From: a virus
Lineage: Duplodnaviria; Caudoviricetes
Virus record (IMG/VR): IMGVR_UViG_3300037634_004069
Span: 1 to 64,000 of that record
DNA: 64,000 bases
Direction: 5' to 3' (one strand)
Positions 11,944 through 41,691 of this stretch are shown one piece after another. A program made the position numbers and the translations under genes. Numbering within the stretch: position 1 is the first letter of the stretch; the number at the start of each line of letters is the position of its first letter. Below the pieces are notes generated by a model. The model worked only from the letters and a program-made list of their open reading frames with translations. It was not told where the DNA came from and did no database searches.

Positions 11944-12356
11944 TGGAAGCTATTGATGTAATGAAACAACTCTATGCTAATCATCATAGAGGACCTATAG
12001 GACCTGAAATTGAAAAACAAATGCTTGCAGAGCAACAAATGGCTCAAGCAGAAGTAGCAGGGACACAGCAAGAAGCAGAAGTAGGTTTAGATGATGGACA
12101 GGGACTTCGACCTATGATTATACCTGGAGCTGAAAGTATAAGGGGAGCTCAAGACGGACCTATAGATCTTACTACTATAGATCAACAAACTGGATTAGTA
12201 GATTCTCATATACCTAACGTGCAGCCAGGAGAATTAGTAAACACTGGAGAAGGTGTAGATGTTTTAGAGACTCCGTCATTACCTGTGGCAGACTTTGGTG
12301 GAAGTTACAAATCTATCATAGCAGAGAATATGAGGAATTATAAAAGAAAGCGATGA
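11943..12356 (+). CDS. Hypothetical virion-associated protein
   Basis: TAATG and ATGA overlaps on both sides. Ends in FGGSYK...YKRKR, which resembles the left half of the GG tag. Confidence 0.7.
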   Translation: MEAIDVMKQLYANHHRGPIGPEIEKQMLAEQQMAQAEVAGTQQEAEVGLDDGQGLRPMIIPGAESIRGAQDGPIDLTTIDQQTGLVDSHIPNVQPGELVNTGEGVDVLETPSLPVADFGGSYKSIIAENMRNYKRKR

Positions 12357-15300
12357 AATACAAAAAGCTCTTACCAAAATATCAATTAGGAACAGTTACC
12401 CCACTTGCGTCTCCAGAGGGATACACAAATGAAGAGCTTGCGTCTATAAATACAGAATCGCTTACTGCAGCAGAGCCTGAGACTCCAAAATCAACCTTCC
12501 TTGATGACTTTGAAGGTGTGGATCTTAATGTTCCTATGCAAACTACTGCCGTTGAAACCACTAATGTAGATACTCCTATAGTAGATGCTACAAGTAATAT
12601 TTTTGACCAAGAAGTTGATAGAAATTTAGATCCCGTAGCTTATTTTTCTAAGCATGGTAAGTTTCCTACAGGACAATCTATCTTTTTAGAAGCTCAAGCC
12701 ACTGTATCAGAAGAGCAAATACCTTATCAACAGTATATAGATAACGTAATACAAGAAGAACTTCCTAACGGATTTAAAGAGCACAAGACTCAATGTATGT
12801 ACGGGGGTAAAAATGTGATTCAATGTTCTGCAGGAACACAATGGAATTTTATGGATCCCACTATTGAAAACTACATCTCAGGCGCTGAAAAAGCATCGTT
12901 AGGTATTCAGGGAGATGGTTGGACTATGGGGCAAAATATAATAGATTCTGGAGGACAAAGAATTTATGGATTGCACGGAAAAGGAACTCGCAATCTTAGA
13001 AAAAATATGATAGAGAGAAGAAAGTTACAAGACCTAGATTTAGTAATGGGTAATGTAATGGTGGGGGATGTTGTAGAGATGTTTTATCTTGGATCAAAGT
13101 ATCAAGCTGAAGCCAACAGAATGGGTACAGGGGATGTTCATACTACCCATGTAGGTCAAGTAACAGAAGATGAAGATGGAGATAAATTTATAACTCATAA
13201 TATTTACGGTACTTGGCAAACTGAGCCTTTTGAAGATGTTTTAAAAGCAAATGGTACTGGAAAAGGAACAGACCCAAGATATTTTGTATCAGGTATTGTA
13301 AGACCGGGTTTTACAGAGGCAAGTAGAAATATTAGAATTTCAGATTCCCCTCAACAAATAAAATCAGCTACAGGCATTAGAAGTCCTCAAGACATGTCAC
13401 CAGAAACTGTAGAAGCATGGCAAAGTGTAAAAGGAAGTTATGTTAACAGCAGTAGAGGGTTTTTAAAGGGCTTAGAGTTTTATGCTCCTAACGTGCAGAA
13501 AGATTTTAATATCTCAGATGAGGATATGCAAAATCTTATACTGCCCTCTGCGTTTGCCATTTTTGGAAAAGAAAGCTCTTTTGGGGCCCTTGCAGGAGAT
13601 TACAAGAAAAAAGTAGCCAAAAGACAAATCATTAGGTCTTATAAAAATACATTTAAAGACTTTGAACATATTCCTATGTGGTTACTTGGAAAAGAGGCAG
13701 CATCTGAATTTGAGTTTGATCCTTATAGTGAAGGCCCCACCCAAATTAAAATGGAGTCAGGCTCTATAACAAAATCATGGTATGCTAGTGATGAAGGAAA
13801 AGCGTACCAAAAAAGATACGGTATAAATCCAGAGACAATATACGATCCTTCTATTGCAGCTCCTGCAACAATGCTTTTAATAGCTAAAAATATACAACTA
13901 CTTAAAGCTGGTATAGGAGAAGGCAGGTGGAATACTTTAGATACTCTCACCAAAAGAAACTTGATATTTAAAGCTCACAATAAAGGTATAGATGCAATTT
14001 TTGAAAATGAGTTTATAAAAGACGGTAAAGCAGATATAGATGGTGGAATTGAAATCTATAGAAACTTGCATTTAAATAGAGACTCTTATACTAATCTAGC
14101 TCAAGACTTTGCTTTAGCTCTTGAAATAGATTATGAAGGAATAAAGAAAGACCATACAGAAGCAGAAAGAATTGGATATACTGCTCAAATACCTAAAACT
14201 GCAGCTGAAGAACGAGCTGAATCTCGAAAAGAATTTGGGCAAGAGATGCAAGACTTTTTTAAATCCTCTGGGTCTACTTCTACTAGTAGGAGAGGTTCAA
14301 GAAGCGGTGGTTCTAGTAGTAGGGGTAGTGGAAGTAGTAGGTCAAGTGGTGTTAGTACACCCACCCCCAATGTTAGTATGCCTTCAAGGCCATCAAGACC
14401 TTCTGGTGTGTCTGGAATGCCCTCTCGAGATATTGATGTATCTGTTCCAAGTGTTAGTATGCCCGAACGCGGGCCTAGTCCAAGAGCCGGTGTAAGTGCT
14501 CCAAACGTTAATATACCTAACACTATAACTTCTCCTATATCAAATATTAGAGTGCCTTCTCCAGATACGAGTTCTCCAACCGCACCTATTCAAATCCCAG
14601 AAATAGATACTACACCTTTAGTATCTGCTAGAGGGGCTGAAGCAAACAGGCAACTGCATGAAATGTTTAGAACAGGTACTGTAGGAGATGCTAAAATAGA
14701 AATGCCTGCATCTCAAGATATAGATGTAGTAAACTCTACCCCGGAAGAGATACGAAGAGCAATTGCAAAAAGCGCTAAAGAAATATCAGACACTGTAGAT
14801 CTCTCTGAAACATTTAACCTACCTGAAGATAGTATACCTTCAATAGATAGAGGGGAAGTAAAAGAGCTTTTAAGTGGAACAGAGTTAGAGGGATTAGGTA
14901 GCCAAATAGCTCCTAACATAGCTGACTCTTTACAGGTGGCTAGACGATGGGCAGATGTTAATCCTGAAATAGCAGCTCAAATACCTGATGAAGTAATGTC
15001 AGAGCTTCTTTTAAGTGAAGAACTTATAGAGAATGGTGGAACAAAAACACTTGAAGAACTTGCAGAGGAGTATTTGTCTGGGACAATTGCCCCTGCAGAT
15101 AGTGTTCTTACACCCCCACCTCCTATAGGAGACTTTGAAATAGTACCTCCAGATACTACTGGTTTTGGTCAAACAAATTTCTTTACAGAAGAAGAAAAAA
15201 ATATAATTAGAGCAGGCCAAAGCACTCAAGAAGATGTTCCTTTACCAGAGCTTAGAATGGGGGGACATTTACCTAAATATCAAAATGGTATTCCTAGCTA

Positions 15301-17782
15301 TTATGATACTAGTGAGCAATTAAATAAAGAAATGCCTTGGAAAAAGTTAAATGCTTTTGATAAGACAGATTTCTTTAGTCGAGATGAAAAAATTGATATG
15401 ATGAATAATCCTAGTACTCCTAGGTATATATCAAGTGGGAATCCAGAAATAGAAAATAAACTCTCTAACGTAGTAGCTCCAGGAGGAGTTGGTAGCCCTG
15501 GTGGAGCAGTTAACATGTATAGTTTAGACAAATACGAAAATCTTGGACTTGGAACACCTGAACGAAAAGCTGCTGTAGCAGAGTTAAACAAAAGAAGAGA
15601 TGCGATGAATGCTAGAGCTTCACGCACATTTGAAAAAACTAAAAAATCTTTACCTAAAGAACAAAGAGCGTATCAAAATCTTATTCAAACAGATTTAGAT
15701 ATAGCTTTTCCACCTGGGTCTATACCTGAAACTCCACATTCTTCTACTTATAGACCTTCATATAATCCATACGAAAGTTTACCTAAAAAGCAAACAGGAG
15801 GGTCTTTACCTAAATACCAAAATGGTACTAAAAAAACAAAAGAGCAAGAAAGAGGAGACTATTATTTAGATCTTTTAGAAAGAACTGGTGGTGCAGGGGG
15901 ATGGAAAAATCTTCATCAGAGGCCAGGATTTAAAATGACTTTGCCTGATTCTACTTGGTATGATGTATTAAACAATAGATTTAATATTGCTAATGAACAA
16001 AAAATACAAGGTATAAATGATACTCTAGCTTATAATGCAAATGTAAGGAAACTTGAAACATTATATTCAAATCCAGTTATCGTAGATGAGAAAGATCCTT
16101 TTGCAGGCTTTATAAGTTCTAGAATGGGTAATAGTACTCCGACAGTCCCCACTATAAAAGAAGCACACTCAATTGGAGCCGAGATTGATGCTGTTAAAGA
16201 CAATATTTATGAAGGAAACGTACAAAACTCACACTCGGAAAACGTACCCCAATACTATATTCATACAGATATGCCTTTTTATAGAAACCCAGGCTCTTCT
16301 GTTGAACATACTCCTACTTCTACATTTGATCTAGCTAAACAAGCTTGGAAAGGAGGAAAAAGTTGGGGTAATAATAAAGTTATATGGGGCAATCGTTATT
16401 CTCAAACTAAGGCCCCTATAATGAATCCTACATTATATGAGTTAGAAGTAGAAGCAAGTGAACCAACCTCGTCTTCAAACACTTCAAACACTTCAAACAC
16501 TTCAAATAAAAAAAATAAAGTAATTAGAAATGAAAAAACAGGAGAAACTTGGACGCAAGAAGAGTGGGATAAACTAAAAGGTAAAGGAGCTTTTAATAAA
16601 GCAGAAAAAAAAGCATCAAGTCTGAAATACGGAGGTGAATTACCTAAATACCAAGATGGTACTGAAGGAACTGTAGTAGAAGCAAATCCTGAAAATCTTA
16701 CTGCAGAAGGAGAGCAGATACTTGAACCTCTTTATTCTAAACCAGAGGTAGTTATAGAAGGTAAAAGACCAAATACTCTAAAAGGACAAGTTGGGAAGTT
16801 TTTACAAAATCCAAATCCTTTTGTTTCACCTGCAGTAGCAAGATATGCTGGAGACTACCAAATTCACTCTCAAAACCCAGACCTAGTAAAAACATATGAT
16901 AGAAGGGGATTCGATGCACTTCCACTAGCCACTATAAAAAGAAAACTAGGTAATTTTGATCCTAGTAAGATCTTATATAAAAATAGACAAGCAGCAGCAG
17001 TAGAAAGAGGTACTCGTAATAATATATATCGAGCTTCGAATGAAAAAAACAATCCTTTTACTCTTGATATATCTGGTCAAAACTTAGCTTATGCAAGGGC
17101 AGGAGAACAAGTAGAAGGAACAGCTATATTAGGTGGAGACTTTTTAGAAGATGAGCCTACAGCATTGCTTGCATCTGAGTATAGAAAACCAGGAGCACAA
17201 AGATTTGAAGGTCAAGGGAAAAAAATAGATATTAATCCAGAAGAACAAGAGTACTACGGAGTAGTAAATAATGAACTCAAAGTAGGTAAAATAAATGATT
17301 TCTCTGATAAAGATGTTATTGTACCTATTAGATGGGGAGGAGATTATGATCTATATGAGGAGGGGGAAGAGCCAGAATCTGTAACTACAAAACAATCTAC
17401 ACCTGGGGGTCATCGAAATTACGGGATACATTCCAACCCAAACCAAGGTAGTACTCGGAAAGTAACTACCCAACCAATGTTGACTAGCGACGGTAAGCCA
17501 GCATATACTAATTCTGCCAGTGGAAAAATGATACTTTATTCTCCTTCTTCAGGTCAAAAACGTTTTTTATTCGGATATGATAAAGATGGAATGCGTGAAG
17601 AATCTCAAAAATTTAAAAGAAAATATAAAGACGCTAGGTACATAACACTTGACACAGGAAGATTTAATATGATAGCATCAAATAAAAAAGGTCTTACAGA
17701 AAAAGACTTTATAGACTATAGTTCAGGAGGTTTTGAAAATGAAATAGGGTCTGGTTATAATATTATTTATAATCCTAAATAA
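12353..17782 (+). CDS. 1809-aa modular virion protein: CHAP/NlpC-like peptidase, SLT-like transglycosylase, Ser/Pro linker and three tag-delimited modules
   Basis: QCSAG / GDGWT / GDVV / THVGQV / THN at about 12820-13200; GKESSFG / GPTQIK / AHNKG at about 13565-13990; GGxLPKYQxG tags at 15260, 15797 and 16631. Confidence 0.7.
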   Translation: MKYKKLLPKYQLGTVTPLASPEGYTNEELASINTESLTAAEPETPKSTFLDDFEGVDLNVPMQTTAVETTNVDTPIVDATSNIFDQEVDRNLDPVAYFSKHGKFPTGQSIFLEAQATVSEEQIPYQQYIDNVIQEELPNGFKEHKTQCMYGGKNVIQCSAGTQWNFMDPTIENYISGAEKASLGIQGDGWTMGQNIIDSGGQRIYGLHGKGTRNLRKNMIERRKLQDLDLVMGNVMVGDVVEMFYLGSKYQAEANRMGTGDVHTTHVGQVTEDEDGDKFITHNIYGTWQTEPFEDVLKANGTGKGTDPRYFVSGIVRPGFTEASRNIRISDSPQQIKSATGIRSPQDMSPETVEAWQSVKGSYVNSSRGFLKGLEFYAPNVQKDFNISDEDMQNLILPSAFAIFGKESSFGALAGDYKKKVAKRQIIRSYKNTFKDFEHIPMWLLGKEAASEFEFDPYSEGPTQIKMESGSITKSWYASDEGKAYQKRYGINPETIYDPSIAAPATMLLIAKNIQLLKAGIGEGRWNTLDTLTKRNLIFKAHNKGIDAIFENEFIKDGKADIDGGIEIYRNLHLNRDSYTNLAQDFALALEIDYEGIKKDHTEAERIGYTAQIPKTAAEERAESRKEFGQEMQDFFKSSGSTSTSRRGSRSGGSSSRGSGSSRSSGVSTPTPNVSMPSRPSRPSGVSGMPSRDIDVSVPSVSMPERGPSPRAGVSAPNVNIPNTITSPISNIRVPSPDTSSPTAPIQIPEIDTTPLVSARGAEANRQLHEMFRTGTVGDAKIEMPASQDIDVVNSTPEEIRRAIAKSAKEISDTVDLSETFNLPEDSIPSIDRGEVKELLSGTELEGLGSQIAPNIADSLQVARRWADVNPEIAAQIPDEVMSELLLSEELIENGGTKTLEELAEEYLSGTIAPADSVLTPPPPIGDFEIVPPDTTGFGQTNFFTEEEKNIIRAGQSTQEDVPLPELRMGGHLPKYQNGIPSYYDTSEQLNKEMPWKKLNAFDKTDFFSRDEKIDMMNNPSTPRYISSGNPEIENKLSNVVAPGGVGSPGGAVNMYSLDKYENLGLGTPERKAAVAELNKRRDAMNARASRTFEKTKKSLPKEQRAYQNLIQTDLDIAFPPGSIPETPHSSTYRPSYNPYESLPKKQTGGSLPKYQNGTKKTKEQERGDYYLDLLERTGGAGGWKNLHQRPGFKMTLPDSTWYDVLNNRFNIANEQKIQGINDTLAYNANVRKLETLYSNPVIVDEKDPFAGFISSRMGNSTPTVPTIKEAHSIGAEIDAVKDNIYEGNVQNSHSENVPQYYIHTDMPFYRNPGSSVEHTPTSTFDLAKQAWKGGKSWGNNKVIWGNRYSQTKAPIMNPTLYELEVEASEPTSSSNTSNTSNTSNKKNKVIRNEKTGETWTQEEWDKLKGKGAFNKAEKKASSLKYGGELPKYQDGTEGTVVEANPENLTAEGEQILEPLYSKPEVVIEGKRPNTLKGQVGKFLQNPNPFVSPAVARYAGDYQIHSQNPDLVKTYDRRGFDALPLATIKRKLGNFDPSKILYKNRQAAAVERGTRNNIYRASNEKNNPFTLDISGQNLAYARAGEQVEGTAILGGDFLEDEPTALLASEYRKPGAQRFEGQGKKIDINPEEQEYYGVVNNELKVGKINDFSDKDVIVPIRWGGDYDLYEEGEEPESVTTKQSTPGGHRNYGIHSNPNQGSTRKVTTQPMLTSDGKPAYTNSASGKMILYSPSSGQKRFLFGYDKDGMREESQKFKRKYKDARYITLDTGRFNMIASNKKGLTEKDFIDYSSGGFENEIGSGYNIIYNPK
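15260..16660 (+). repeat. Dispersed 30-nt/10-aa repeat GGxLPKYQ[ND]G (three copies)
   Basis: 15260-15289 GGHLPKYQNG, 15797-15826 GGSLPKYQNG, 16631-16660 GGELPKYQDG. The last two share 25 of 30 nt. Confidence 0.9.
16473..16506 (+). repeat. In-frame 9-bp tandem repeat (CTTCAAACA x about 3.8; Ser-Asn-Thr)
   Basis: Read directly: cttcaaaca cttcaaaca cttcaaaca cttcaaa. Confidence 0.9.
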
Positions 17783-17851
17783 AATAAGTGACATAATATA
17801 AAAGCATCACGCGAAATCATATCAACATATTATATATTCAATTACACACTT

Positions 17852-17859
17852 TAAATTTG
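17852..17859 (+). promoter_or_regulatory. Possible -7 box (TAAATTTG) for the scaffold/capsid operon
   Basis: Intergenic, 5 nt before the ATG at 17865. The same 11-mer TAAATTTGTAT occurs at 38247-38257 before the cargo genes. Confidence 0.4.
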
Positions 17860-17864
17860 TATCC

Positions 17865-18944
17865 ATGGAAGGGAAAGAAACACCTGATAACGACGGTCTA
17901 GACATTGAGTTTGATATAGCATCTATTGAAGATACTGTAGAGGCTCCAGAAAAGACTGAAGAAACAGAAGAAACTACAGAAACAGTAGAGGCTAAAGAAG
18001 ATCTAAAAGACATAGATAAACCTGAAACTTTAGAAGCTTCAGAGCCAGAGCCTGTAGTAGAAGAACCAGTTGCAGAAGAGACTAAGGAGGAAGATTCTTC
18101 TGTAGTGTCTGAAATAATTTCAAAACTGGGTTATGAAATAGACGGAGACTTTGAAGATTCTACTGAAGGCATTGTAGAGCTTACTAAAAACGTAAGTGAA
18201 AAAATGGCTGAAGAAACTTTAGATACTATTTTCAATGCGCATCCATCTGTAAAAAGACATCTTGATTTTGTAATGAATGGTGGAGACGCCAATCAATTTA
18301 TGGACGCTCAAAAAGAAACAGATTATGAATCTGTAGAAGTAAGAGAGGATGATAAAGCATCTCAAAAAAAGATTCTTACAGATTATTTTGTAGCACGAGG
18401 AGATGATAAAGCTTTTATTGGAGATATGATAGAAGCATATGAAGATAAAAATGCACTTTTTCAAAAAGCAAATCAAGCTAAAGAAGCTCTTGCCGGAGCA
18501 CAGAAACAAAAGCAAGATAGAATGCTTGAAGAGCAACGTGCTTTTGCAGAAAAACAAAGAGAAGAATCTCAACAAATTTGGAATAGCGTAAAAGAAACTG
18601 TTAAGTCTTCTTCTAATCTTTCTGGATTACCTATTTCAGAAAGAGATAAATCTAAATTCATTTCTTATATATCAGATCCAGTTACCAAAGATGGTAGAAC
18701 ACAGAGAGATCTAGATACAGAGAAAATGAGTTTAGATCAAAAACTTGCTGCAGACTATTTCTTATATAAGAAGGACTTTGCAAAATTTATTAATACTAAA
18801 GGTAAAACTGAGGCGGCTAAATCATTAAAAAATCGTCTTAAATCCAATAGCACAGGGAAGGTGAAAGGAGGAAAGTCAAATCCAAATTATAAAGGGGGAG
18901 GAAACTCTCAGTTTGATGACTTGGATGTTGGCGGACTATTTTAA
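17865..18944 (+). CDS. Probable capsid scaffolding protein
   Basis: Very acidic, disordered N-terminus, coiled coil and basic C-terminus; directly upstream of the MCP as in crAss-like phages. Confidence 0.6.
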   Translation: MEGKETPDNDGLDIEFDIASIEDTVEAPEKTEETEETTETVEAKEDLKDIDKPETLEASEPEPVVEEPVAEETKEEDSSVVSEIISKLGYEIDGDFEDSTEGIVELTKNVSEKMAEETLDTIFNAHPSVKRHLDFVMNGGDANQFMDAQKETDYESVEVREDDKASQKKILTDYFVARGDDKAFIGDMIEAYEDKNALFQKANQAKEALAGAQKQKQDRMLEEQRAFAEKQREESQQIWNSVKETVKSSSNLSGLPISERDKSKFISYISDPVTKDGRTQRDLDTEKMSLDQKLAADYFLYKKDFAKFINTKGKTEAAKSLKNRLKSNSTGKVKGGKSNPNYKGGGNSQFDDLDVGGLF

Positions 18945-18971
18945 TAAGTAAAAACTATAAATTAACAACAA

Positions 18972-20423: not shown

Positions 20424-20439
20424 TAGCATATAAAACTCC

Positions 20440-20467
20440 GCAGGGTGGGCTTTCGGGCTCACTCTGC
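20440..20467 (+). terminator. GC-rich UUCG-loop hairpin after the MCP
   Basis: GCAGGGTGGGCT TTCG GGCTCACTCTGC. The G-U wobbles work on the plus strand; there is no immediate U tract. Confidence 0.55.
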
Positions 20468-20532
20468 CCCTTCCCGGGGGTAGTTATTCTTTTTAACCCA
20501 GGGAATTTTAATTATAAATCTGGAAAGAACCT

Positions 20533-22577: not shown

Positions 22578-22596
22578 TAATTAAAAATTTAAAATC

Positions 22597-23574: not shown

Positions 23575-23599
23575 TATTAATTGATAAAAATTAGAAACT

Positions 23600-24091: not shown

Positions 24092-24117
24092 GTCAGAGTA
24101 ATTGATTAACTTTAGAG

Positions 24118-24154
24118 ACCGGAGGGGGAAGTGTCCTCCTCCGGTTTTTTATTT
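24118..24154 (+). terminator. Rho-independent terminator
   Basis: ACCGGAGGGGG...CCTCCTCCGGT followed by TTTTTATTT. Confidence 0.8.
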
Positions 24155-24166
24155 AAAATAAACGGT

Positions 24167-29272: not shown

Positions 29273-29311
29273 TAATTATATATCTAAACCTAAATAAATT
29301 ATTAAAATCAG

Positions 29312-29740: not shown

Positions 29741-29742
29741 TC

Positions 29743-30839: not shown

Positions 30840-30846
30840 ATTTGAA

Positions 30847-31545: not shown

Positions 31546-32014
31546 AGATCTTTACAGTACATATCTAACTATGAGTGATTCTCCAGTACTTTTTAAAAAG
31601 TATAAGGAGATTCTTCAAGAGTTTAATATTATGATAATGGAAGCCCTTATAGCTGGGGCAGAATTTAACATGGGTTATAACTTATCTAATCTTTCAATTA
31701 TAAGAGCGAATGTAAATCCAAACACAGCTAGAATAGATTGGAACACGTCTATGAAATTTAAAGAAGAGCTTTTAAAAAAAGGAACTGTTCTTTTTGATAA
31801 AGAAACCGGGAAAGGAGAGAAATGGTTTATTTATCATACATCTAAACAGTATTTTAAATTTTACTGGTCTAAGATGTTCTGCAGAGTAAAAAATTCAAGC
31901 GTCTATAGATTTGATGCTACTCGTGGCAAAAAAGGAAATAAACAGAAATTAAAAGATCTGATCAATAATGACGATCTTGCATATCTAAGATTTAAACGCC
32001 ATGGCAATCTATAA
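31529..32014 (+). CDS. IHF-like protein of the crAss tail module
   Basis: The ATG at 31529 avoids a long overlap. EFNMGYNLSNLSI, IDW and YFKFYWSK...VYRFDATR match the second crAss IHF-like gene. Confidence 0.55.
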   Translation: MPKQSKDLYSTYLTMSDSPVLFKKYKEILQEFNIMIMEALIAGAEFNMGYNLSNLSIIRANVNPNTARIDWNTSMKFKEELLKKGTVLFDKETGKGEKWFIYHTSKQYFKFYWSKMFCRVKNSSVYRFDATRGKKGNKQKLKDLINNDDLAYLRFKRHGNL

Positions 32015-32969
32015 GCACGTATCCGGAAAAGAGATTATAAGAAAGGTATTTAGAGACATACGTCCTGCAAATGCTAACTTCATCCATGATGCTGTAGAAT
32101 GGATGGGAGAGGCTCTTGAGCATATAGGTGCTAGCACCCAGCTTTGTCGCAAGCAGTGTGTAATAGAAATAAAGAACCATAAAGCCTGTTTACCAGGAGA
32201 TCTTTATTACATAAATCAAGTAGCGGTAAATACTTGCACACAACCCTCTATAAAAAATGAAACATCAGAGATATCTTCTCAGATAGCAGAATTAAATAGC
32301 AATCTATCTACTTACTATGAAAATGTAAATAATACAGTTTCAAAAAATGAAAGTGGTCAATATATATCTTCTTTGACTACTACGGATTTAAATCAATTCG
32401 ATACTTACCATAAAACAACTTTAAATCAATTAAATGTTTTAAACTCAAGAATGAGTGTTTTAGAAAACATTTATTTTAATAGTAATGGTAATTGCTTACA
32501 GCCTCTACAGTACGGTACTTCTACTTTTCACTCAAGTATACACTGTGACGGCTGCGTAAATGCGCAATCAAATTATAAGGATACATATATAATTAATTGC
32601 GGTAATATTCAAACATCTTTTGCACAAGGGCAAATATGTTTGAGTTACATGGCATTCCCAGTAGATGAGGAGTGTTACCCAATGGTACCAGATGACATAA
32701 GCTACAGAGAAGCTATGTTTTGGTACATTCTTAAAAAGCTCCTTCTTCAGGGGGAAACATTCAAGAACACTAAAATAGAATATCAGTTTGCAGAAATGAT
32801 GTGGCAAAAGTATTGTACACAAGCGCGTAATGCTGCAAATTATCCTGATATAGATAGATATCAATCGTTCATGGATCAGTGGGTGAGGCTTTTACCTAAT
32901 ATAAACAGAGACCTTAATTTCTTTGAAGATCTTAATAGTAGGGAAATGCTTCAGTCCGAAAACTTCTAA
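32001..32969 (+). CDS. Tail ring protein (crAss-like)
   Basis: IIRKVFRD...DAVEWMGEALEHIG, ICLSYMAFPVDEECYPMVPDD and WQKYCTQAR; directly upstream of the muzzle gene. Confidence 0.65.
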   Translation: MAIYKHVSGKEIIRKVFRDIRPANANFIHDAVEWMGEALEHIGASTQLCRKQCVIEIKNHKACLPGDLYYINQVAVNTCTQPSIKNETSEISSQIAELNSNLSTYYENVNNTVSKNESGQYISSLTTTDLNQFDTYHKTTLNQLNVLNSRMSVLENIYFNSNGNCLQPLQYGTSTFHSSIHCDGCVNAQSNYKDTYIINCGNIQTSFAQGQICLSYMAFPVDEECYPMVPDDISYREAMFWYILKKLLLQGETFKNTKIEYQFAEMMWQKYCTQARNAANYPDIDRYQSFMDQWVRLLPNINRDLNFFEDLNSREMLQSENF

Positions 32970-32971
32970 AT

Positions 32972-35900
32972 ATGGCTGAAGAAGGAAACAGAGTATTAAG
33001 ATTTATAAGGGGGCTATTTAAAGATACGGCTCACGTAGATCAGCCCCCAGGCTCGTTAAGATTCGCACGTAATGCGAGTATAAACAATACTACTGGAGCT
33101 GTGTCTAACGAGCCCGGTAATATAAAAATAGAATCACTGCCTGTAGGGGCTGTTGTAATAGGAACTATTCCTCTTACAAGCAATGATATAGCTCTGTTTT
33201 TAAAAGTGGGGGATGATTCTATAATAGGTATTTATAGAAATAGCGCATACCAAACTATACTTAATCTGCAACCGGTTTTAAATGGTAATGATACAGATTT
33301 AAACTTTCAAACTTCGCACCCTATACAAGGAACATTTAAAGAACAGGGGGATGGAGATCTTATGGTATATTGGACAGATGATCTTAACCCCCCTAGAGTT
33401 CTTAATATAACTAGACAAAGAGTTGTTTCTCCTAATACCATATACGGAATAAATGCTATGAATTCCCCCGATGTAGCTTTTATAAACAAATTAAATTTAT
33501 TCCCCCATTCTGGACCAGTTCCTCATGTAGAGTTAATAAATGTATTTAGCGGTGGGGGATGTCTTACAGGTGTATATTATATAACTCTTGCTTATACGGA
33601 TACAGATATAGTTACAACAAACTATTTAACTGTAGCTAATCCGGTTTCAATTGTAGATGATCCAGAAGGAATAGCCCCTATAGAAAGTTATGATGGAGCT
33701 GAACCAGGAATATTAACTGGTAAATCTCTTACTTGGGAAGTATCAAACATAAATACTGATATGAAATATTTATCAGTTCAGATACTTCAAAAAATAGAAG
33801 GGGTTATAACTGCTGTTAGACTTCATGATATAGAGATAGATAACAGAGATAGATTTCTTGTAACATATAGTGGAGAAGAGTCTCAAGCCACATCTTCTGT
33901 AGATGCTGTTACTATAGATATGCCAGAGTATTTAACTGCTAAAACAATGGAGCAGTTAGATAGTGTTCTTTATTTAGGAAACCTTACTTCTGATACAGAC
34001 ATAGGATATCAAAAATATGCTAATTATATAAAATCTGAAGCAGTAGTATTAAAAGGTGAAGATGTTTTTGATCCTTTTGATCCTATGGTCATTACACAAA
34101 GTTTTTTTGATTTAAAAAAATCTGACACTATTCACTCCCAGGATTCTGATGCTATACAACACGGATATAGATATCCAAAAAATATTTATAAATATAAAGG
34201 ATATACTAGAGAAGAAGTATATGCATTTTACATAGCATTCATTCTTAAATCAGGAAGGATGTCTTATGCCTATCATATCCCTGGAAGACAACCTTTAACA
34301 GATGTAAATCCTGATGATGTTAACGAACTTATGGGGGATTGGAATCCTGCATTAGTAAATGAAGGATTATCTCTTTATGATAATGGAAATGGACATATAG
34401 GTGATTGGCAATTAATAAGTTTAACAGGGGGTCAGCAACCTCAAGGGTATGCATTCCATTTCTATGATTTTTCTCATTTGCATTCTCGCCATATGAACTA
34501 CTGGCATAATCTGCATGAGTTTTATCCTAATAATGATAATTTTCTTTCTGTAGATGCTGAAACAGGGTCTACTTATGAAGACTTAAGATCACAAAATGTA
34601 AGGCACCATAGATTCCCATCTAATAGAAATTCAGAGTTTACCACTGTAAAAAGTACAGATGCTCAAGTATTTGAAAGTGCAGAAAACGATAAAAAAGCCA
34701 CTGTACATTGGTTTTGGTATGGTGAGTTTGATAATAATGATGAAGTGCTAAGAGGACGTTATCCTACAGAAAATCCTAATGAAGCACAATGGTGGCAAAA
34801 TAATAATTATGGCACCCCTATGGGAGGAACAGGATCAGGTCATGATACTGATCGTGATAGTTCTCCTCAAGATGATCCTGGTTACTGGTACAGAGGTTTC
34901 TTTTTTAATAACGGACCTGCTAATGGTCCATTTCCTAATTCTACTCATTATGGTGGAAATCCACACTCTCCTGTAGGTTTAGGAGGCACTCCTAATGATG
35001 TTACTTCTGAAGCTCCAAACGGTCAAAGTAATACTCAAAATTCTTGTTGGCCACCATCAGCCGCGTATTTTTTTAATTGGCCCACTAATACAAATCCAAA
35101 CCAACCCTTAAATGATGTGTGGGAAACAGAAATAACTGAATGGTCAGATTTAACATTTGTATATGATACAAATCCTCCAGAGGGAATGAGATTAAGATTA
35201 CAATACGACTGGGTTCCGAATCTTTTTGAACCGAATAGTAGACCTCACTGTTGGGGTAAGTCTTGGGGTACTGTGGCCGGACATAGTGGAGAAGACGTTC
35301 TTTTAACTGATGTATCAGGAGATTTAGGTAACGGCACAAGGCCGGGATGGGCAGCTTGGGTAGAACCAGATACACCTATACCAGATGAAAATGAAAATAT
35401 TCCTTTAACACACCATGTTCAACCTTTAGGAATTAAATTTTGTGATATAAAAATACCTAAGTCCATTGCAGATAAAGTGCAGGGATTTAGAATTTATTAT
35501 GCAGATAGAACTCACGAGCAAAGAACTGTACTAGGTCAAGCCCCTGTACACCCTATGGAATATAGGCACCAAATGGATCCATCTAAATGTGATACTGGAG
35601 GATTGGGCCAAGGAAAATTCAATTATTGGTTACAAAACGGACAACCTGCTCCTGTAAACATAAGGGCTCCTTGGGCCCACGAAGTTTATTCTTTTCATGA
35701 TTTTTATTTATTAAATAGACACCCCTCATTAGCAGCTGCTACACATATAAAACTTCAATATATTTTGTGTATGGCAAATTTTAAAGGATCTGTAAGATAT
35801 AATAAAGATGGTAAATACACCGACACTAGTACCCAGAATCAAGAACCTTTTTATACTTGTAGAAAACCAGAGGTTATAACTTCTTTTCATATATCAGGAG

Positions 35901-38293
35901 ATCAGTTTAGAATACAAGGAATAGATCAAAGATTAAATTACATTCTCGACGATAAGTCAAAAGCTTATGTTTTAGGAGATACTATTTATGAAGGAACACA
36001 TCAAGGATTTAAATACGATATATACAATCAAGGGGGACAAACTCATATTGCTATAAAGCCAAAAAGATGGTTACCTCAGTTAGTCTCTAATCCAAGCAGC
36101 TCTTGGAGAGATCAAAGAAGTGAAGGTGCAAACACTGAATTTGTATCTTATACTACAAATTCTTGGGAAATGGATGATCAGGGAAATCAAATTCCTGGAA
36201 ATCCTGAAGCTTATGACGGACTTCAATTATACTTAACAAACCTTAAAGCATTTAAATCTGATGTATATAATGCTGTAGACTCACAAAATCTTGTATGGAC
36301 AGGATATGAAGTAGTAGGAGATGACTTAAATAGATTTATTCTAGATGAGAATGATTCTCCTGTATATAGTGGATCAGATCTATTTTGTACTGATGATGTA
36401 TATGGGGGCGATACTTATATAACTAGGTATGGTTATAGAATGACTGCCAGAGAAGAAGTTAGTTCAACTCCAGATGCAAATCAATCTAAAGATATAAAGT
36501 CTGTTATAGCTTGTATTACTGAAAGCACAGAAAATATAAACTACAGGCATATAAATAATGATGATGAACCTTATTTTCCAGGTGCTGCTTTAAAATCTGT
36601 ACTAGATGCAGATGCAAGAATAGATCTTCATTATAACCCAGATCTTACTACAGGAAAAATAAGATACAATGAAGACTACTCATCTATAAATAATATCAAA
36701 GTTGTACTACCTTTCCCTTTTGTACTTGAGCAACCAGAAAATCATCCTGTAAGAATTATACGTTCTTCTAAAACAACATCCTCTTACTTATCAGACAACT
36801 ATAGAATATACTCATTTGGTGAATTAAGAGAGCTTAATAATAGATATGGGGAACTTTGGAAGATAACCGCTGTAGGTAATCTTTTATTATTCCACATGGA
36901 AGACGCTTTGTATCAAACAAAGGGTAAGCAAAAAATGAAAGTTTCTGAAGGCAATGAAGCTTTTATTGGTCAGGGAGATATTTTTACTCAAGAACCGGAT
37001 TTAGTGCAACACACAGACTCTGGATATTTAGGTACAAGATCTCAATTTGCAAATATTGTTACACCTCAAGGATACTTTTTTATTGATAATATTGATAGGA
37101 AGATGTTTCTTTTAGGTAAAGGAGCAGAAGAACTTTCAGGTGAAAAATATGGTATGTCAAATTGGTTGCAAGACAATATGCCATATGCTTTAGAAGATTA
37201 TGGGTTTCACGGTAAGACAGACAGTTTTATTACAGGTATGGGATTTCATGCAGTGTACGATGAAAGATTCTCAAGGATTATAATAACAAAAAGAGATCTT
37301 GTACCAACAGCTGCTTTTATAGGAGAATGGAGTGGGTCTTATACATCACTTGTTGCTGCTACGCAAAACGGTGCTTCAGGCATAGTTTACGTTAATGGAA
37401 CATATTATAAGTGGACAACAACAAGCGAAAACTTATCTTCTTGGCAACCTATAGATCTTGATAACACACAAATAACAGGATCAAGAGACGATTTATTTGA
37501 AAGAAAGTCTTGGACTATCTCTTTTGTTTTTTCTAGTATGGTTCAAAACAAACTAGGTTCTTGGGAGAGTTTTCACGACTATGTTCCTTATATGTATTCT
37601 TATTCTGGAATAGATGTGTTTTCTTTTACTGAAAGCACAGATCCAGATATTCAAAGAGGTATATGGAGGCACAACGACTACAATAATATGGGTAATTTTT
37701 ATGGAACCATTTACCCATTCGAAATAGAAGTAATATCCAATATGGTTCCGAATATCGATAAGGTATTCAACAGTTTTAGTTTTCTTGTAGATACAAAAGA
37801 GTATAACTCTCAGTATAAACTTTATAACAATGACTTAAACTCTGGATTTACTTCTTATATTACATATAATTCAGATATGCTTTCCGGCGAGCATCCGTTA
37901 GAGTATCTGATAAATACCAGAAGAATAGGTACAGACTGGAAAGTAAACCAGTTTAGGGATATGTCTAAAGAAATTACTGATGCAAGTAACTACTATACAG
38001 GCATAACAACACCATTCACTGGTACAAACTACATAACACAAGGACAAAACCTTTTTGGTGGTTCTAACGCAGGAACTGTAACTGCAATAACAGACCGCAT
38101 GTTCTCCACTGCAACAACAGAAGCCTACCATGAACCAATGAATGTTAACTATATAGACTCTAATAAAGAGTGGTATAAACAAAGCAAATTCATAGACAAA
38201 TACATGGGTATAAGACTCTCATGTAGTAATGAAGCAAACAATTTGGTAAATTTGTATACAGTGCTTGCAGACTTTAGACCTTATAAACGATGA
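32972..38293 (+). CDS. Tail stabilisation / muzzle protein (P22 gp10-like beta-propeller)
   Basis: 1773 aa. GLFKD...QPPGSLRFARN, VYWTDDLNPPRVLN, GGDTYITRY, LNNRYGELWKI, GYLGTRSQF, WTISF...W.SFHDY.P and DKYMGIRL. Confidence 0.75.
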   Translation: MAEEGNRVLRFIRGLFKDTAHVDQPPGSLRFARNASINNTTGAVSNEPGNIKIESLPVGAVVIGTIPLTSNDIALFLKVGDDSIIGIYRNSAYQTILNLQPVLNGNDTDLNFQTSHPIQGTFKEQGDGDLMVYWTDDLNPPRVLNITRQRVVSPNTIYGINAMNSPDVAFINKLNLFPHSGPVPHVELINVFSGGGCLTGVYYITLAYTDTDIVTTNYLTVANPVSIVDDPEGIAPIESYDGAEPGILTGKSLTWEVSNINTDMKYLSVQILQKIEGVITAVRLHDIEIDNRDRFLVTYSGEESQATSSVDAVTIDMPEYLTAKTMEQLDSVLYLGNLTSDTDIGYQKYANYIKSEAVVLKGEDVFDPFDPMVITQSFFDLKKSDTIHSQDSDAIQHGYRYPKNIYKYKGYTREEVYAFYIAFILKSGRMSYAYHIPGRQPLTDVNPDDVNELMGDWNPALVNEGLSLYDNGNGHIGDWQLISLTGGQQPQGYAFHFYDFSHLHSRHMNYWHNLHEFYPNNDNFLSVDAETGSTYEDLRSQNVRHHRFPSNRNSEFTTVKSTDAQVFESAENDKKATVHWFWYGEFDNNDEVLRGRYPTENPNEAQWWQNNNYGTPMGGTGSGHDTDRDSSPQDDPGYWYRGFFFNNGPANGPFPNSTHYGGNPHSPVGLGGTPNDVTSEAPNGQSNTQNSCWPPSAAYFFNWPTNTNPNQPLNDVWETEITEWSDLTFVYDTNPPEGMRLRLQYDWVPNLFEPNSRPHCWGKSWGTVAGHSGEDVLLTDVSGDLGNGTRPGWAAWVEPDTPIPDENENIPLTHHVQPLGIKFCDIKIPKSIADKVQGFRIYYADRTHEQRTVLGQAPVHPMEYRHQMDPSKCDTGGLGQGKFNYWLQNGQPAPVNIRAPWAHEVYSFHDFYLLNRHPSLAAATHIKLQYILCMANFKGSVRYNKDGKYTDTSTQNQEPFYTCRKPEVITSFHISGDQFRIQGIDQRLNYILDDKSKAYVLGDTIYEGTHQGFKYDIYNQGGQTHIAIKPKRWLPQLVSNPSSSWRDQRSEGANTEFVSYTTNSWEMDDQGNQIPGNPEAYDGLQLYLTNLKAFKSDVYNAVDSQNLVWTGYEVVGDDLNRFILDENDSPVYSGSDLFCTDDVYGGDTYITRYGYRMTAREEVSSTPDANQSKDIKSVIACITESTENINYRHINNDDEPYFPGAALKSVLDADARIDLHYNPDLTTGKIRYNEDYSSINNIKVVLPFPFVLEQPENHPVRIIRSSKTTSSYLSDNYRIYSFGELRELNNRYGELWKITAVGNLLLFHMEDALYQTKGKQKMKVSEGNEAFIGQGDIFTQEPDLVQHTDSGYLGTRSQFANIVTPQGYFFIDNIDRKMFLLGKGAEELSGEKYGMSNWLQDNMPYALEDYGFHGKTDSFITGMGFHAVYDERFSRIIITKRDLVPTAAFIGEWSGSYTSLVAATQNGASGIVYVNGTYYKWTTTSENLSSWQPIDLDNTQITGSRDDLFERKSWTISFVFSSMVQNKLGSWESFHDYVPYMYSYSGIDVFSFTESTDPDIQRGIWRHNDYNNMGNFYGTIYPFEIEVISNMVPNIDKVFNSFSFLVDTKEYNSQYKLYNNDLNSGFTSYITYNSDMLSGEHPLEYLINTRRIGTDWKVNQFRDMSKEITDASNYYTGITTPFTGTNYITQGQNLFGGSNAGTVTAITDRMFSTATTEAYHEPMNVNYIDSNKEWYKQSKFIDKYMGIRLSCSNEANNLVNLYTVLADFRPYKR

Positions 38294-41200
38294 AAAAAAA
38301 GAAACGACTCTTACAAATGTATCGTAATGGTACTGATCCTAGAACAACCACTGCACCTGCATCTACTTCAGCAACTAATATTCCACCTATAAACGTAGAA
38401 AATATTATAGCTCAAGATGCAGTTATGAAGCAAAGAGCAGCAAATAATGCAGACGTACAAAGGTTAATACAATCTGGAGTAATTAAACCTCAAGTACAAC
38501 AAAACCCTGGAACAATAGATTATCGTGCGTCTGATAGAAGGTCTGCTAACTATGTTGGTAATCCTAACTTAGGGTTTTTAGGTAATAGAGTAGGGGAGTC
38601 TCCAGCATTTAGACGTAGTAGAGAGGATGCTTTTAATACAGAGACTGCAGCAGAATTAATATTTGCAGGTGCAGCAGGTATAGCTACAGGTATAAGAACC
38701 GCTAAAGCTGCAAAAACTGCTGCTGCATATAAACAAGAGTTAAGCCAATTTGTAGATCCTAAAATTCTAGATGCTTTAGAAAATGAAGGTAAAAACTTAA
38801 AAGACTTAGGAGTAAGCGACTTTACTAAAAAGCATGATCAAATGGTAGCTGATGTTTATGGTGAACACGGTCCATCTATAATTAGTGATGCTCAAAAACA
38901 TTTTTTAGAGACAGGTCAAAAACAACCTATAGCTAGCGCTTATAGTATGCCAGATGCCAGTTTACAAGAAGTATTAGATGCTAGAGACATGGCTCAATGG
39001 AAAGCAGCAGGCAAAGAAGGATTAACAGATGAAATGGCAAGCACATATGCTGAAAGGCAACTAGGAAAACAATTTTCAGAAGAAAGGCTTGCTAGAGAAG
39101 TAGCAAAGAATGAAGCTAATTTAGCAGATTATCAAAGACGAGTAGCTGCATTAGATCCTAAAGGACCCGTTCAAGTTAGTGAAGGTGTATTTAGACCTTT
39201 TAAAGTTGATAAAATTCCTAGGTCAGAAAGAATAGACCCTTGGAATCCAGACTTGGGAGAATTATCTGGGAGTCCTGCACATCAAATTCAAGTAGAGCAA
39301 GCAATTAATAGGAACCGATTAATTAGAAAAGCTGAAGATAAAATAGCAGGTAGCGGCGAAGCTATGGGGTTAGACATCCCATTAAATAGTTCTATTGATG
39401 CAGGAGAAGAAGCTTTAAGAGGTTATACAGATCCTAAAGCAGATCTATTACATGATATATTTGGTGATGGTACAAAAAAAAGACCATCTTTTGATTTTAG
39501 AAGTAAAGATTATATATATGATCCTGCAAAAACATTCCCAGTAAGTTTAAATAAATACGGGGGAACTCGAGAAGATGGTCTACCTAAATATAAGTATGGA
39601 TCTGAACCAGATCCTTATACAACCTGGGCACCAGATTTGGGAGAAGATGCAGGCCAAGGCATTAAAGCAGGTGATACGGGAAATAACAAATGGATGAAAA
39701 ATGCTGGAAATGCAGCTTTAGCTGTAGGAACATCTATAATTTCAAGTTTTACAGACAGTAAAGCTGAAATGGAAGCTTTTCAGAAAGCAAAAAGAGGGAA
39801 TTTTAATTACAACCTTTTTAATGCAAAAAGACAAGCAGATATGTTAGATGATTCAAGGTATCGTAGTGATTATACATATGGTACTCCTACATATAAAATG
39901 GGAGGTGAATTACCAAAGTATCAAATAGGAGGGCAAGATTATTCTGGACAATGGAATACGACTGTTCAAGAAGAAAACCCTTACACTTATACTCCAGAAG
40001 TTAATAATATTAGCAGTCCTCAACTTCAATCTGAACAAATAGCAGAAGGTGTTGATCAGACTGTAGAAGTCGGGTTAGCTCAGGCTATTCCTGCACTAGG
40101 TGCGGCTTTTATGGCAAGAGACGTAATTCAACAAGATATCCTAGGCCAAAAATCTGGTAGATTAAAAGATGGTGAAGAAGTAAAGTATTATGCTACAAAA
40201 GAGGATGCAGCTAAGGGTTCTATAACAACAGCGCATCATACCCAAGCGATTGATCATGCAAAAAAAGGAGACTGGGGTAGAGCAACATTAACTCTGTTTG
40301 GGGGCCCTATTGGAATAATCGCTGATGCAGTAGACAACGTGAATAAATCAGAAAAGTATAATCAAGAACAAAAACAACTCGCAAGAGAAAGAGCAACTTC
40401 ACAAGGTGGAACATCAGATAAAAACTTTATGGGGCATAATCAACAATCTCTTAGAAGTGTTGAAGGCGAAATTGCAACTCCAAGAGGGTTTCAAGAAAAG
40501 GCTGCATACGATATGAGTATGGCAAAATATGGAGGAACTATGAAAGACTTATACAGAAAAGGTGGGTATTTACCTAGATATAGATATGGAGGAATGATGG
40601 CAACAGGAGGCGTTTCTCGAAACAAAGCCAATGCAGAACTTGAAAAAGATGAAATCATTATGCGAGACGGTGGACCAGATGAACTTGTTGTAGGAGCTAC
40701 ACATGAAAAAGGTGGTGTACCAGAAGTCTTAAATGAAGGAGATTATGTATGGTCTGATCATCTTACTTATAAAGGAAGATCAATGGCTCAACTATATGCA
40801 ACAGCTGTAAAAAACGGTGCTACTCCACAAGAGATAGATCAACTTAAAATGCTTCAAGAAAAACTAGCAGGACGTGCTGGAAGTGCTCAACAGGCAAAAG
40901 ATATGATGGCACCTCCTCCTGTACTTGTGGGAAAATACGGAGGGTCTCTTCCTAAATATAAAAGAGGAACAGGAGAGTTATCTGGGTTTAAACGTTGGAC
41001 AAATTCAGGTGGACATTTACCATATATACAAGCAGCAGCAGGTATAGCAGGAGCTATCACTGCGGCTACGACAAAAAGAGATGATGTTGAAATTAGAAAA
41101 CCTGTAGTAGTAGAAGCAGATACAATTAGCAATGATCGTTTTAATCCTAGAGCATACTTAGAAGAAAACCAAAGAAACTATATAAAAAGGTTTGAAGCTG

Positions 41201-41691
41201 CTCAACAAAAAGGTTATGGTACAGGACTTGAAGCTTCTGCACAACTAGCATATAATGATAAAGTAGCTGCAGATAATAAAGTACAAGCAGAGGCAAATAA
41301 AATTAATTTGGCTGCATCTATTAATGAGAATACTGAAAACGCTAAAAATGAACTTGAGGCAAATAAAACAAATGCAGCTGCTTGGGAAAGGTATAACGTA
41401 AGACTTGAAGAAGAGGATAGAGCACAAGATGAATTTAAAAGACAGCGTACACAAGCTATAATAGACCCTCTAGTTACAGAAACAAGAAATATAGTTCAGA
41501 CAGATCTAGGTATGCGAGAAATAGGAGCTATTGGAGAGGGTGCCGGAACTAATGAAAGAGGCGCTGGATTTAGTGAAGTTTTGGCTAGACAGCAAATAAA
41601 AGCTGCAAATCCTACTATCTCAGATGAGGATTTAAAGAAAGCGGTAAATAAAGCTGAAGCAGATTATAATGAAAAGCACGGACTTGGATAA
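38290..41691 (+). CDS. Cargo (ejection) protein with TM-like Gly/Ala helices and four GG tags
   Basis: First large gene after the muzzle. NAELEKDE...GATHEKGGV...DYVWSDHL motif; hydrophobic helices; tags at 39559, 39901, 40561 and 40939. Confidence 0.65.
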   Translation: MKKKKRLLQMYRNGTDPRTTTAPASTSATNIPPINVENIIAQDAVMKQRAANNADVQRLIQSGVIKPQVQQNPGTIDYRASDRRSANYVGNPNLGFLGNRVGESPAFRRSREDAFNTETAAELIFAGAAGIATGIRTAKAAKTAAAYKQELSQFVDPKILDALENEGKNLKDLGVSDFTKKHDQMVADVYGEHGPSIISDAQKHFLETGQKQPIASAYSMPDASLQEVLDARDMAQWKAAGKEGLTDEMASTYAERQLGKQFSEERLAREVAKNEANLADYQRRVAALDPKGPVQVSEGVFRPFKVDKIPRSERIDPWNPDLGELSGSPAHQIQVEQAINRNRLIRKAEDKIAGSGEAMGLDIPLNSSIDAGEEALRGYTDPKADLLHDIFGDGTKKRPSFDFRSKDYIYDPAKTFPVSLNKYGGTREDGLPKYKYGSEPDPYTTWAPDLGEDAGQGIKAGDTGNNKWMKNAGNAALAVGTSIISSFTDSKAEMEAFQKAKRGNFNYNLFNAKRQADMLDDSRYRSDYTYGTPTYKMGGELPKYQIGGQDYSGQWNTTVQEENPYTYTPEVNNISSPQLQSEQIAEGVDQTVEVGLAQAIPALGAAFMARDVIQQDILGQKSGRLKDGEEVKYYATKEDAAKGSITTAHHTQAIDHAKKGDWGRATLTLFGGPIGIIADAVDNVNKSEKYNQEQKQLARERATSQGGTSDKNFMGHNQQSLRSVEGEIATPRGFQEKAAYDMSMAKYGGTMKDLYRKGGYLPRYRYGGMMATGGVSRNKANAELEKDEIIMRDGGPDELVVGATHEKGGVPEVLNEGDYVWSDHLTYKGRSMAQLYATAVKNGATPQEIDQLKMLQEKLAGRAGSAQQAKDMMAPPPVLVGKYGGSLPKYKRGTGELSGFKRWTNSGGHLPYIQAAAGIAGAITAATTKRDDVEIRKPVVVEADTISNDRFNPRAYLEENQRNYIKRFEAAQQKGYGTGLEASAQLAYNDKVAADNKVQAEANKINLAASINENTENAKNELEANKTNAAAWERYNVRLEEEDRAQDEFKRQRTQAIIDPLVTETRNIVQTDLGMREIGAIGEGAGTNERGAGFSEVLARQQIKAANPTISDEDLKKAVNKAEADYNEKHGLG
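39559..40968 (+). repeat. Dispersed GG-x-LP[KR]Y-x-x-G tag (four copies)
   Basis: 39559-39600 GGTREDGLPKYKYG, 39901-39933 GGELPKYQIGG, 40561-40593 GGYLPRYRYGG, 40939-40968 GGSLPKYKRG. Confidence 0.85.

Follow-up and report, generated by a model that had tools for sequence, protein, structure and literature searches.

A conserved Gly-Gly-x-Leu-Pro-Lys-Tyr-Gln tag at the N-termini and internal module joints of two cargo-type proteins of a marine-type crAss-like phage

crAss-like phages rank with the most abundant viruses so far described. In one of them, a marine-type crAss-like phage represented by the 78.8-kb virus record IMGVR_UViG_3300037634_004069, a short peptide tag built around Gly-Gly and Leu-Pro-Lys-Tyr-Gln is repeated in two large proteins, which raises the question of what such a tag delimits and what it does for the proteins that carry it. 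The analysis was performed on the first 64 kb of this record, here called the window. The two proteins are referred to as P0001, the product of the 1809-amino-acid (aa) open reading frame (ORF) behind the portal gene, and P0002, encoded by the 1133-aa ORF that follows the muzzle gene. The window phage is designated G000 and a sister phage with about 80% protein identity G001. In a first-pass annotation of the window the tag had been proposed to divide both proteins into swappable modules and to act as a capsid-loading address or a maturation site.

A six-frame scan with the pattern GG.LP[KR]Y[QKR].G gave six full copies, located at 15260, 15797 and 16631 in the ORF at 12353-17782 and at 39901, 40561 and 40939 in the ORF at 38290-41691, with zero further matches on either strand of the window or in the rest of the 78.8-kb genome. 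One gapped copy, KYGG-TREDG-LPKYKYG, begins at 39553, and the claim that the motif is confined to two ORFs was thereby borne out. Shuffled proteomes were used for comparison: the full motif was observed 6 times and in none of 2000 shuffled proteomes, while LP[KR]Y[QKR] was observed 8 times in the 19,323 residues of all plus-strand ORFs as compared to 0.03 times in the shuffles (maximum 2). Looser forms, e.g. [KRQM][YFMKT]GG, are nearly restricted to the ORFs of P0001 and P0002. The two proteins are organised as follows.

12353..17782, plus strand: 1809-aa polyvalent-type cargo protein P0001, in the order N-terminal tag, M1, tag, M2, tag, M3, tag, M4
12353..12391, plus strand: N-terminal tag MKYKKLLPKYQLG of P0001
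12770..14212, plus strand: M1 enzymatic head, with a papain-fold Cys/His domain first and a lysozyme/SLT-like helical domain behind it
15248..15289, plus strand: tag 1, ELRMGG-HLPKYQNG, the upstream crossover partner seen in G001
15290..15784, plus strand: module M2 (aa 980-1144), with relatives in the G001 C1 homologue and in P0011
15785..15826, plus strand: tag 2, KKQTGG-SLPKYQNG, from the six-frame scan
15827..16621, plus strand: module M3 (aa 1159-1423), missing from G001; its final approximately 35 aa and the tag are common with L024
16622..16660, plus strand: tag 3, LKYGG-ELPKYQDG, the downstream crossover partner
16661..17779, plus strand: module M4 (aa 1437-1809), terminal here and in G001, internal in P0009
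38290..41691, plus strand: 1133-aa C1-type cargo protein P0002, directly following the muzzle gene
38290..38331, plus strand: N-terminal tag MKKKKRLLQMYRNG of P0002, modelled as a helix over residues 2-12 with a predicted local distance difference test (pLDDT) score of about 80
39553..39600, plus strand: gapped tag KYGG-TREDG-LPKYKYG; the N-terminal region of P0015 aligns just past it
39895..39933, plus strand: tag KMGG-ELPKYQIGG, positionally homologous to the tag with which minimal C1 proteins begin
40525..40611, plus strand: compound tag KYGG-TMKDLYRKGG-YLPRYRYGG-MMATGG, preceding the conserved domain
40612..40914, plus strand: conserved domain (aa 775-875, pLDDT 87-97), the most strongly conserved block of the 38 homologues; its homologue in crAss001 gp45 is the portal-bound domain
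40933..40968, plus strand: tag KYGG-SLPKYKRG after the conserved domain, aligning with FAYGG of gp45 and with AKKGGMLKKYQTG of P0016
41008..41688, plus strand: degenerate GGHLPYIQ, a hydrophobic helix and a long helical hairpin, forming the C-terminal C1 body

Both proteins begin with the right half of the motif (MKYKKLLPKYQLG and MKKKKRLLQMYRNG), as claimed, and comparison of the inter-tag segments with each other gave zero similarity, in agreement with the earlier description of these segments as unrelated. In these two virion-cargo-type proteins the tag marks the N-terminus as well as each internal joint between modules. It is best read as one or two basic-aromatic-x-x-Gly-Gly units, and its consensus [basic]-[Y/M/K]-G-G-x-L-P-K-Y-Q-x-G(G) is best explained as the signature of a modular cargo system of one crAss-like lineage. 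At the nucleotide level, the 25/30 identity reported earlier was found for two pairs of tag copies, and the remaining pairs share 18-24 of 30 nucleotides.

Among relatives of the window phage the modules vary while the tags persist, as had been expected and as seen in the comparisons with G001, L024, P0009 and P0011. In the G001 homologue of P0001, tag 1 is joined straight to M4, the module that follows tag 3 in the window, and both M2 and M3 are missing. The DNA alignment of G000 and G001 shows that G001 tracks tag 1 upstream and tag 3 downstream, with the crossover inside the LPKYQ codons; the tags delimit modules, and for this one indel the crossover lies within the codons of the tag. A module 47% identical to M2 occupies aa 466-567 of the G001 homologue of C1 (the crAss001 cargo protein with which P0002 is compared below), where it stands behind a KMGG-ELPKYQ tag and ends in KKQTGG. 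A second copy of M2, 68% identical, is found in P0011, and this one module family occurs in both post-portal and C1 proteins. In P0009, M4 is internal and is followed by a tag and two more modules. The post-portal protein of L024, a relative with a 91% identical capsid protein, shares only the last approximately 35 residues of M3 and the tag with P0001, after which a different module with a zincin-like HETGH motif follows (L024:3711-6548, minus strand). The length of the post-portal ORF in otherwise syntenic relatives is 1809, 1328, 1386, 516 or 433 aa, and P0001, whose gene adjoins the portal gene, contains at least four modules, each of which is distributed independently.

In order to quantify this association, internal homology breakpoints were collected from 55 tag-bearing proteins. 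Breakpoints located at most 20 residues from a tag accounted for 23% as compared to 8% in random placement, and the highest value of 1000 randomisations was 12%, figures to be read with the reservation that alignment endpoints are non-independent and that tags may themselves stop alignments. Module shuffling at the tags is well supported by these sequence comparisons. A comparison of G000 with G001 shows that all differences at the conserved positions of the tag (GG, L, P, K, Y, Q) are synonymous. Replacements are limited to the two variable x sites and to the last Gly, for which G001 has Ala. Judged from these codon differences, selection is acting on the tag peptide and not on its DNA.

The tag is also a signature of N-termini beyond the two proteins of the window. 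Most of the 38 C1 homologues begin with a basic stretch followed by [LP]xKY[QP]xGG, and tag-like N-termini were found on the post-portal proteins P0009 (MLKKYQLG), L036pp (MLKKYQLGG) and L025 (…GYLLPKYQNRG); in the post-portal protein L038pp the motif lies 20 residues from the N-terminus. The same short N-terminal peptide is therefore present on unrelated cargo-type proteins, namely P0001, P0002, most C1 homologues and three post-portal proteins. Moreover, the conserved C1 domain is tag-flanked throughout the family, and the minimal member of 657 aa carries LKKGGYIKQYAGGG before and AKKGGMLKKYQTG after it. The 599-aa protein P0018 aligns over its residues 5-577 with aa 541-1128 of P0002 (E 1.7e-47), LRKYQAG… being placed on LPKYQIGG… and the alignment running to the C-terminus, which means that P0002 reads as a complete minimal C1 protein with about 535 residues, i.e. 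two more tagged modules, fused in front. By this alignment at least one internal tag is a former N-terminal tag of a shorter protein, which implies that the proteins grew by fusing tagged modules end to end. M4 was also searched for as a stand-alone short protein; only one contig-end fragment was obtained, and gene fission at the tags is for this reason not shown.

The identity of P0002 was addressed by profile searches and structure prediction. A full HMMER scan of 1.84 billion representatives yielded 38 relatives, whose shared core is residues 755-895, and the GG…Y..GG of the compound tag is kept in the C1 family alignment. In hhalign, residues 817-887 of P0002 were matched to residues 479-565 of crAss001 gp45 with a probability of 94.6% (E 6.8e-8, 62 columns); this span covers the C-terminal half of the gp45 portal-bound domain and the following YGG, with KYGG placed on AYGG. 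The Pfam family of gp45, PF25725, was not reached by P0002 (hmmscan, 0 families at E <= 0.01) nor by R2, P0013 and P0018 (E <= 0.05), while gp45 itself scores 2.3e-66, and profile searches of PDB sequences with alignments A2 and A5 found nothing. The gene order ring 1, muzzle, C1 is the same in the window, in crAss001 and at the P0016 locus. Judged from profile alignment and gene order, P0002 is a distant homologue of the crAss001 cargo protein C1 (gp45). The earlier view that both tagged proteins occupy cargo positions of a crAss-like virion module agrees with the annotation of portal, ring 1 and muzzle and with the crAss001 gene order, and both proteins are probably carried in the particle and injected.

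The AlphaFold model of P0002 has confident domains at residues 610-700, 770-870, 920-1060 and 1090-1130, and all four internal tags lie between confident domains in coil with pLDDT below 50; the internal tags are accordingly predicted by the model to lie in disordered linkers. Foldseek with the whole model gave zero matches at E <= 0.001 and a wide VIA-align search gave only generic long-helix matches (Z <= 8). A complex prediction of the portal (alignment A4) with residues 740-900 of P0002 resulted in an ipSAE of 0.00, which counts neither for nor against binding. The database representative of P0002, P0012, begins at Met10, so that the N-terminal tag (window 38290-38316) is lost from it, and start-site calls can therefore hide such tags in public protein sets. 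In the C1 homologue of the sister phage (L007:632-4222, minus strand), a mini-module of about 45 residues (GLWANIHAKRARGESPAKPGDKEYP…) without counterpart in P0002 is located between two KYGG tags.

Pfam gave no match for the M1 head of P0001 and no PolyVal or LPD domain anywhere in the protein. Within its first 620 residues, C158, H266 and H282 of the Cys/His domain and E407-S408 of the lysozyme/SLT-like domain are invariant. From ESM features M1 was read as CHAP plus Lysozyme_like/SLT at 0.90, which was taken as a lead only, and the AlphaFold2 model of residues 1-640, of low confidence (mean pLDDT 45), has a secondary structure that fits this reading. The top Foldseek rows for this model are papain-fold cysteine proteases, including Gly-Gly-specific ones, at E >= 0.05, which is not significant. 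Since CHAP is paired here with a lysozyme-like domain, the ESM reading points to a cell-wall hydrolase, and the head of P0001 is a probable CHAP plus lysozyme-like enzyme of this kind. A separate Amidase_2 endolysin gene is present at window 3433-3843, and due to this the CHAP/lysozyme-like head would probably serve entry and not lysis. Of the positional equivalents of P0001, L025 carries a Kinase-PolyVal domain and others end in a phage lysozyme module. By its position, its head and these equivalents, P0001 is similar to the polyvalent proteins that Iyer et al. described (PMC5512222). Its tags are covered by no usable structure model.

The gene between portal and P0001 encodes a small, acidic protein of 137 aa, whose stop codon overlaps the P0001 start (ATGA). 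Its FGGSYK, listed in the first-pass annotation as a left-half-like sequence, is present, and its Gly-Gly is kept in four diverged relatives as PS-x(1-4)-GG-[SQ], which places it beyond chance. In L036, L037 and L038 both this Gly-Gly and the C-terminal tail are conserved, and two of the four relatives finish in the tag-like RKFNLGG or KRYRPGS. On these similarities the 137-aa protein may be part of the tag system. The genes that set the context of both tagged proteins are the following.

9697..11943, plus strand: portal protein, phrog_6547 at E 1e-106
11943..12356, plus strand: 137-aa post-portal protein with a PS-x-GG-[SQ] element and a basic-aromatic C-terminal tail
32001-32969: ring 1, PF24228
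32972..38293, plus strand: muzzle protein, PF25731 at E 3.7e-50 and PF25729
43806..57896, plus strand: 4696-aa fused RNA polymerase-type cargo polyprotein, with HEAFH at aa 2055 and the RNA polymerase motif DFDID at aa 3466

The position of the muzzle gene sets the next gene as the C1 slot. The window additionally encodes a terminase and a Crass_capsid major capsid protein (PHROG and Pfam annotation) as well as ring proteins 1, 2 and 3/4 and the muzzle protein (Pfam), and many of the 1259 portal homologues are of Tara ocean or marine sample origin. A 359-aa scaffold candidate lies at 17865-18944. The 4696-aa ORF is the candidate for a polyprotein that comes to mind first, yet it lacks the tag. 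It has no Pfam match; ESM gave a lead to the polyvalent-protein domains LPD39 and LPD1. The replication module is located on the opposite strand beyond the window and includes an AAA_24 (Sak4-like) protein (L034:10472-11230; genome 72471-73229, minus strand). The Sak4-like family includes single-strand annealing recombinases tolerant of short homology, and this protein is a candidate recombinase that could support exchange at short homologies. In one relative (L038:5802-9965) the large terminase subunit TerL has 1387 aa with Hint, Intein_splicing and LAGLIDADG matches, indicating an intein in TerL.

The tag was then followed beyond this group of phages. An exact-codon scan of 2.9 million viral contigs identified 25 loci with the tag, most of which are giant multi-copy ORFs or N-termini, and where synteny was readable the tagged ORFs follow portal or muzzle. 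The tag recurs in phages with unrelated modules. A few matches are located in large contigs without recognisable crAss markers: in contigs of 110-204 kb, where crAss markers were not detectable, the ORF carrying KEGGQLPKYQIGG has 459 aa and the ORF after it, of 626 aa, starts MKIKTFQTGG (L016:5773-9033, minus strand), and contigs of this type imply that the tag occurs outside recognisable crAss-like contexts. For the ORFs adjoining the tagged ones of L008 and L016, PHROGs gave uninformative results. A tblastn search of 50,697 deposited phage genomes gave no match for P0001 or P0002. The cargo genes of Cellulophaga phage phi14:2 contain weak [YF]..GG forms only, so that its published proteomics cannot decide the function of the tag. 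A literature search found no paper with LPKYQ or LPKAQ in a phage context, and none that describes an N-terminal or Gly-Gly motif for Crassvirales cargo proteins or an inter-module peptide in crAss cargo or polyvalent proteins. Injected cargo and polyvalent proteins are already known in kind, as are capsid-targeting peptides at N-termini and junction motifs for recombination; the novelty is one conserved tag that is common to two different cargo proteins, stands at each module start and is demonstrably a point of module exchange.

With regard to function, about half of our confidence is placed in the tag as an uncleaved docking or threading motif, i.e. a short linear motif. It would act as a handle by which each cargo module is brought to a site repeated within the particle, or is retained there, with the portal, the tail lumen, a scaffold or another cargo protein as candidates for this site. 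It may in addition serve as a flexible leader when the chain threads out through the tail. With the same handle on every module and about 20-25 of 30 bases shared, recombination at the tags would give in-frame chimaeras that can still be loaded, and the injected repertoire would be changed. The most direct comparison comes from crAss001, where C1 is reported to be ordered over residues 425-552, beginning with AFGG(-W…) (PMC10172136); the chain thus runs through that Gly-Gly, which counts against cutting. C1 has one other ordered segment, 214-245, whose start lies four residues past AYGG (PMC10172136). When crAss001 virions were separated by sodium dodecyl sulfate polyacrylamide gel electrophoresis (SDS-PAGE), the large cargo proteins were found among bands that include ones of 150, 270 and over 300 kDa, which was likewise counted against cutting (PMC6235969). 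Several points weigh on the other side. The crAss001 evidence concerns a degenerate aromatic-Gly-Gly copy in a distant phage and not the LPKYQ form, and no binding partner was identified for the tag. Gly-Gly precedes every internal copy and is absent from both natural N-termini, which have Lys/Arg there, as a cut after Gly-Gly predicts. The papain-fold Cys/His head of P0001 and the HExxH in the neighbouring giant protein are either possibly a protease, and in the literature fused crAss polyproteins are suspected to be cleaved (10.1101/2020.03.07.982082).

These last points are shared by a rather unlikely alternative, according to which the tags are processing sites where a phage or host protease cuts after Gly-Gly, releasing about nine polypeptides that each start with x-LPKYQ-x-G; N-terminal copies ending in GG could then be cleavable leaders like the T4 capsid-targeting sequence. 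Cutting at GG-X is performed by adenain, pS273R of African swine fever virus (ASFV) and C39 peptidases. Processing would also fit KYGG-type left halves without LPKYQ at module ends (KKQTGG-EMSY in R2; KYGG-MMEYGKGG), the exposed disordered linkers in which the P0002 model places the tags, the papain-fold domain at the head of P0001 and its orthologues with the weak Foldseek rows mentioned above, and HEAFH in the 4696-aa protein and HETGH after the tag in L024. However, no Pfam protease family was detected in the ORFs scanned (the larger ORFs of the genome), the Cys/His domain is read by ESM as CHAP with lysozyme, and a post-portal ORF without a papain-fold head can still bear the tag (L038pp). 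The zincin invoked in the first-pass annotation found no support beyond a single HExxH, expected about 0.5 times by chance in the proteome, and HEAFH is without Pfam match. Furthermore, the tag is absent from the fused 4696-aa polyprotein, the order reported for crAss001 C1 extends through AFGG, and a conserved motif of 12 residues is long for a cleavage site. Cutting and docking could also be combined: each Gly-Gly would be cut during or after assembly, giving about nine injected effectors that each re-expose a docking LPKYQ handle and are traded by recombination between genes and genomes, a cargo code that we hold to be unlikely.

The crossover within the tag codons, the enrichment of breakpoints at tags, the 18-25 of 30 nucleotides shared between copies and the AAA_24 (Sak4-like) protein encoded by the phage are all compatible with a tag that has no part in binding or cleavage and is a flexible, Gly-rich hinge, retained because it offers recombination a common junction in frame. 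This is nevertheless quite improbable, because the tag is conserved as a peptide with synonymous DNA changes, is kept at N-termini, where nothing joins, is found on both sides of the conserved domain in all family members, even minimal ones without inserted modules, and recurs in phages too diverged for DNA homology. Very unlikely, finally, is an action after ejection, in which insertion into or passage of the host envelope, or binding of a host factor, would be needed by each injected module. The tag is confined to proteins expected to exit the virion first (the hydrolase-head protein and C1), it has a basic-aromatic character, and C1 is thought to form a trans-envelope channel (PMC10172136), but the motif is short and hydrophilic, and it is conserved across phages probably infecting different Bacteroidota hosts. 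Two further candidates were rejected: a Lys-Gln cross-linking site, as Gln and Lys are replaceable (LPRYR, LPKYK, LPMYQ), and a sortase-like LPxTG reading, as the motif differs and the hosts are Bacteroidota.

Known systems resemble the tagged proteins in part. The crAss001 protein gp45 (PDB 7QOG and related entries; PF25725 crAss_CARG1; PMC10172136) has in common with P0002 the gene position right after the muzzle gene, the homologous central domain with aromatic-Gly-Gly before and after it, the basic N-terminus and the helical C-terminal body. Unlike P0002, it has degenerate [AF][YF]GG only and no LPKYQ, and it lacks the approximately 535 extra N-terminal residues with two more tagged modules; a second tagged protein behind the portal, such as P0001 in the window phage, is not known in crAss001. 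Polyvalent proteins including MuF-linked effectors (Iyer et al. 2017, PMC5512222) are like P0001 giant, multidomain and portal-adjacent with variable effector modules, and are packaged in the head and injected. In contrast to the tagged proteins described here, no conserved inter-domain peptide was described for them, the word 'linker' is absent from that paper, and zincin-like peptidases are proposed there to process them (PMC5512222).

Tag-like arrangements are likewise found outside the crAss-like phages. Like the tag, the T4 capsid targeting sequence is a short N-terminal peptide on otherwise unrelated packaged and injected proteins; it comprises about 10 N-terminal residues common to IPI-III and Alt and is removed by the gp21 prohead protease, whereas the tag is also internal at module joints, and to our knowledge no prohead protease is known in crAss-like phages. 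In CdiA (VENN), in Rhs proteins (PxxxxDPxGL) and at the inter-effector sites of MARTX toxins, a short conserved peptide borders recombining modules, and the Rhs and MARTX borders are also cleaved. Those polymorphic toxins are bacterial and secreted and have either a single variable tip or a domain dedicated to processing, whereas here several joints per protein are present in two virion proteins. The GG-X processing by adenain, ASFV pS273R and C39 peptidases is similar in that Gly-Gly stands right before the proposed new N-terminus and in the polyprotein logic in a large DNA virus, but no homologous protease was detected here (larger ORFs, Pfam), and most of what is conserved in the tag follows the Gly-Gly.

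A shared peptide on every cargo module would provide a handle for spotting injected proteins in uncultured phage genomes, and ideas on how cargo is loaded or matured would gain a concrete hypothesis that can be tested. Should the tag be sufficient by itself to direct loading, foreign proteins could be packed into phage particles with it. For the phages themselves, tag-based exchange would explain the fast change of the injected repertoire between phages whose capsid proteins are 90% identical.

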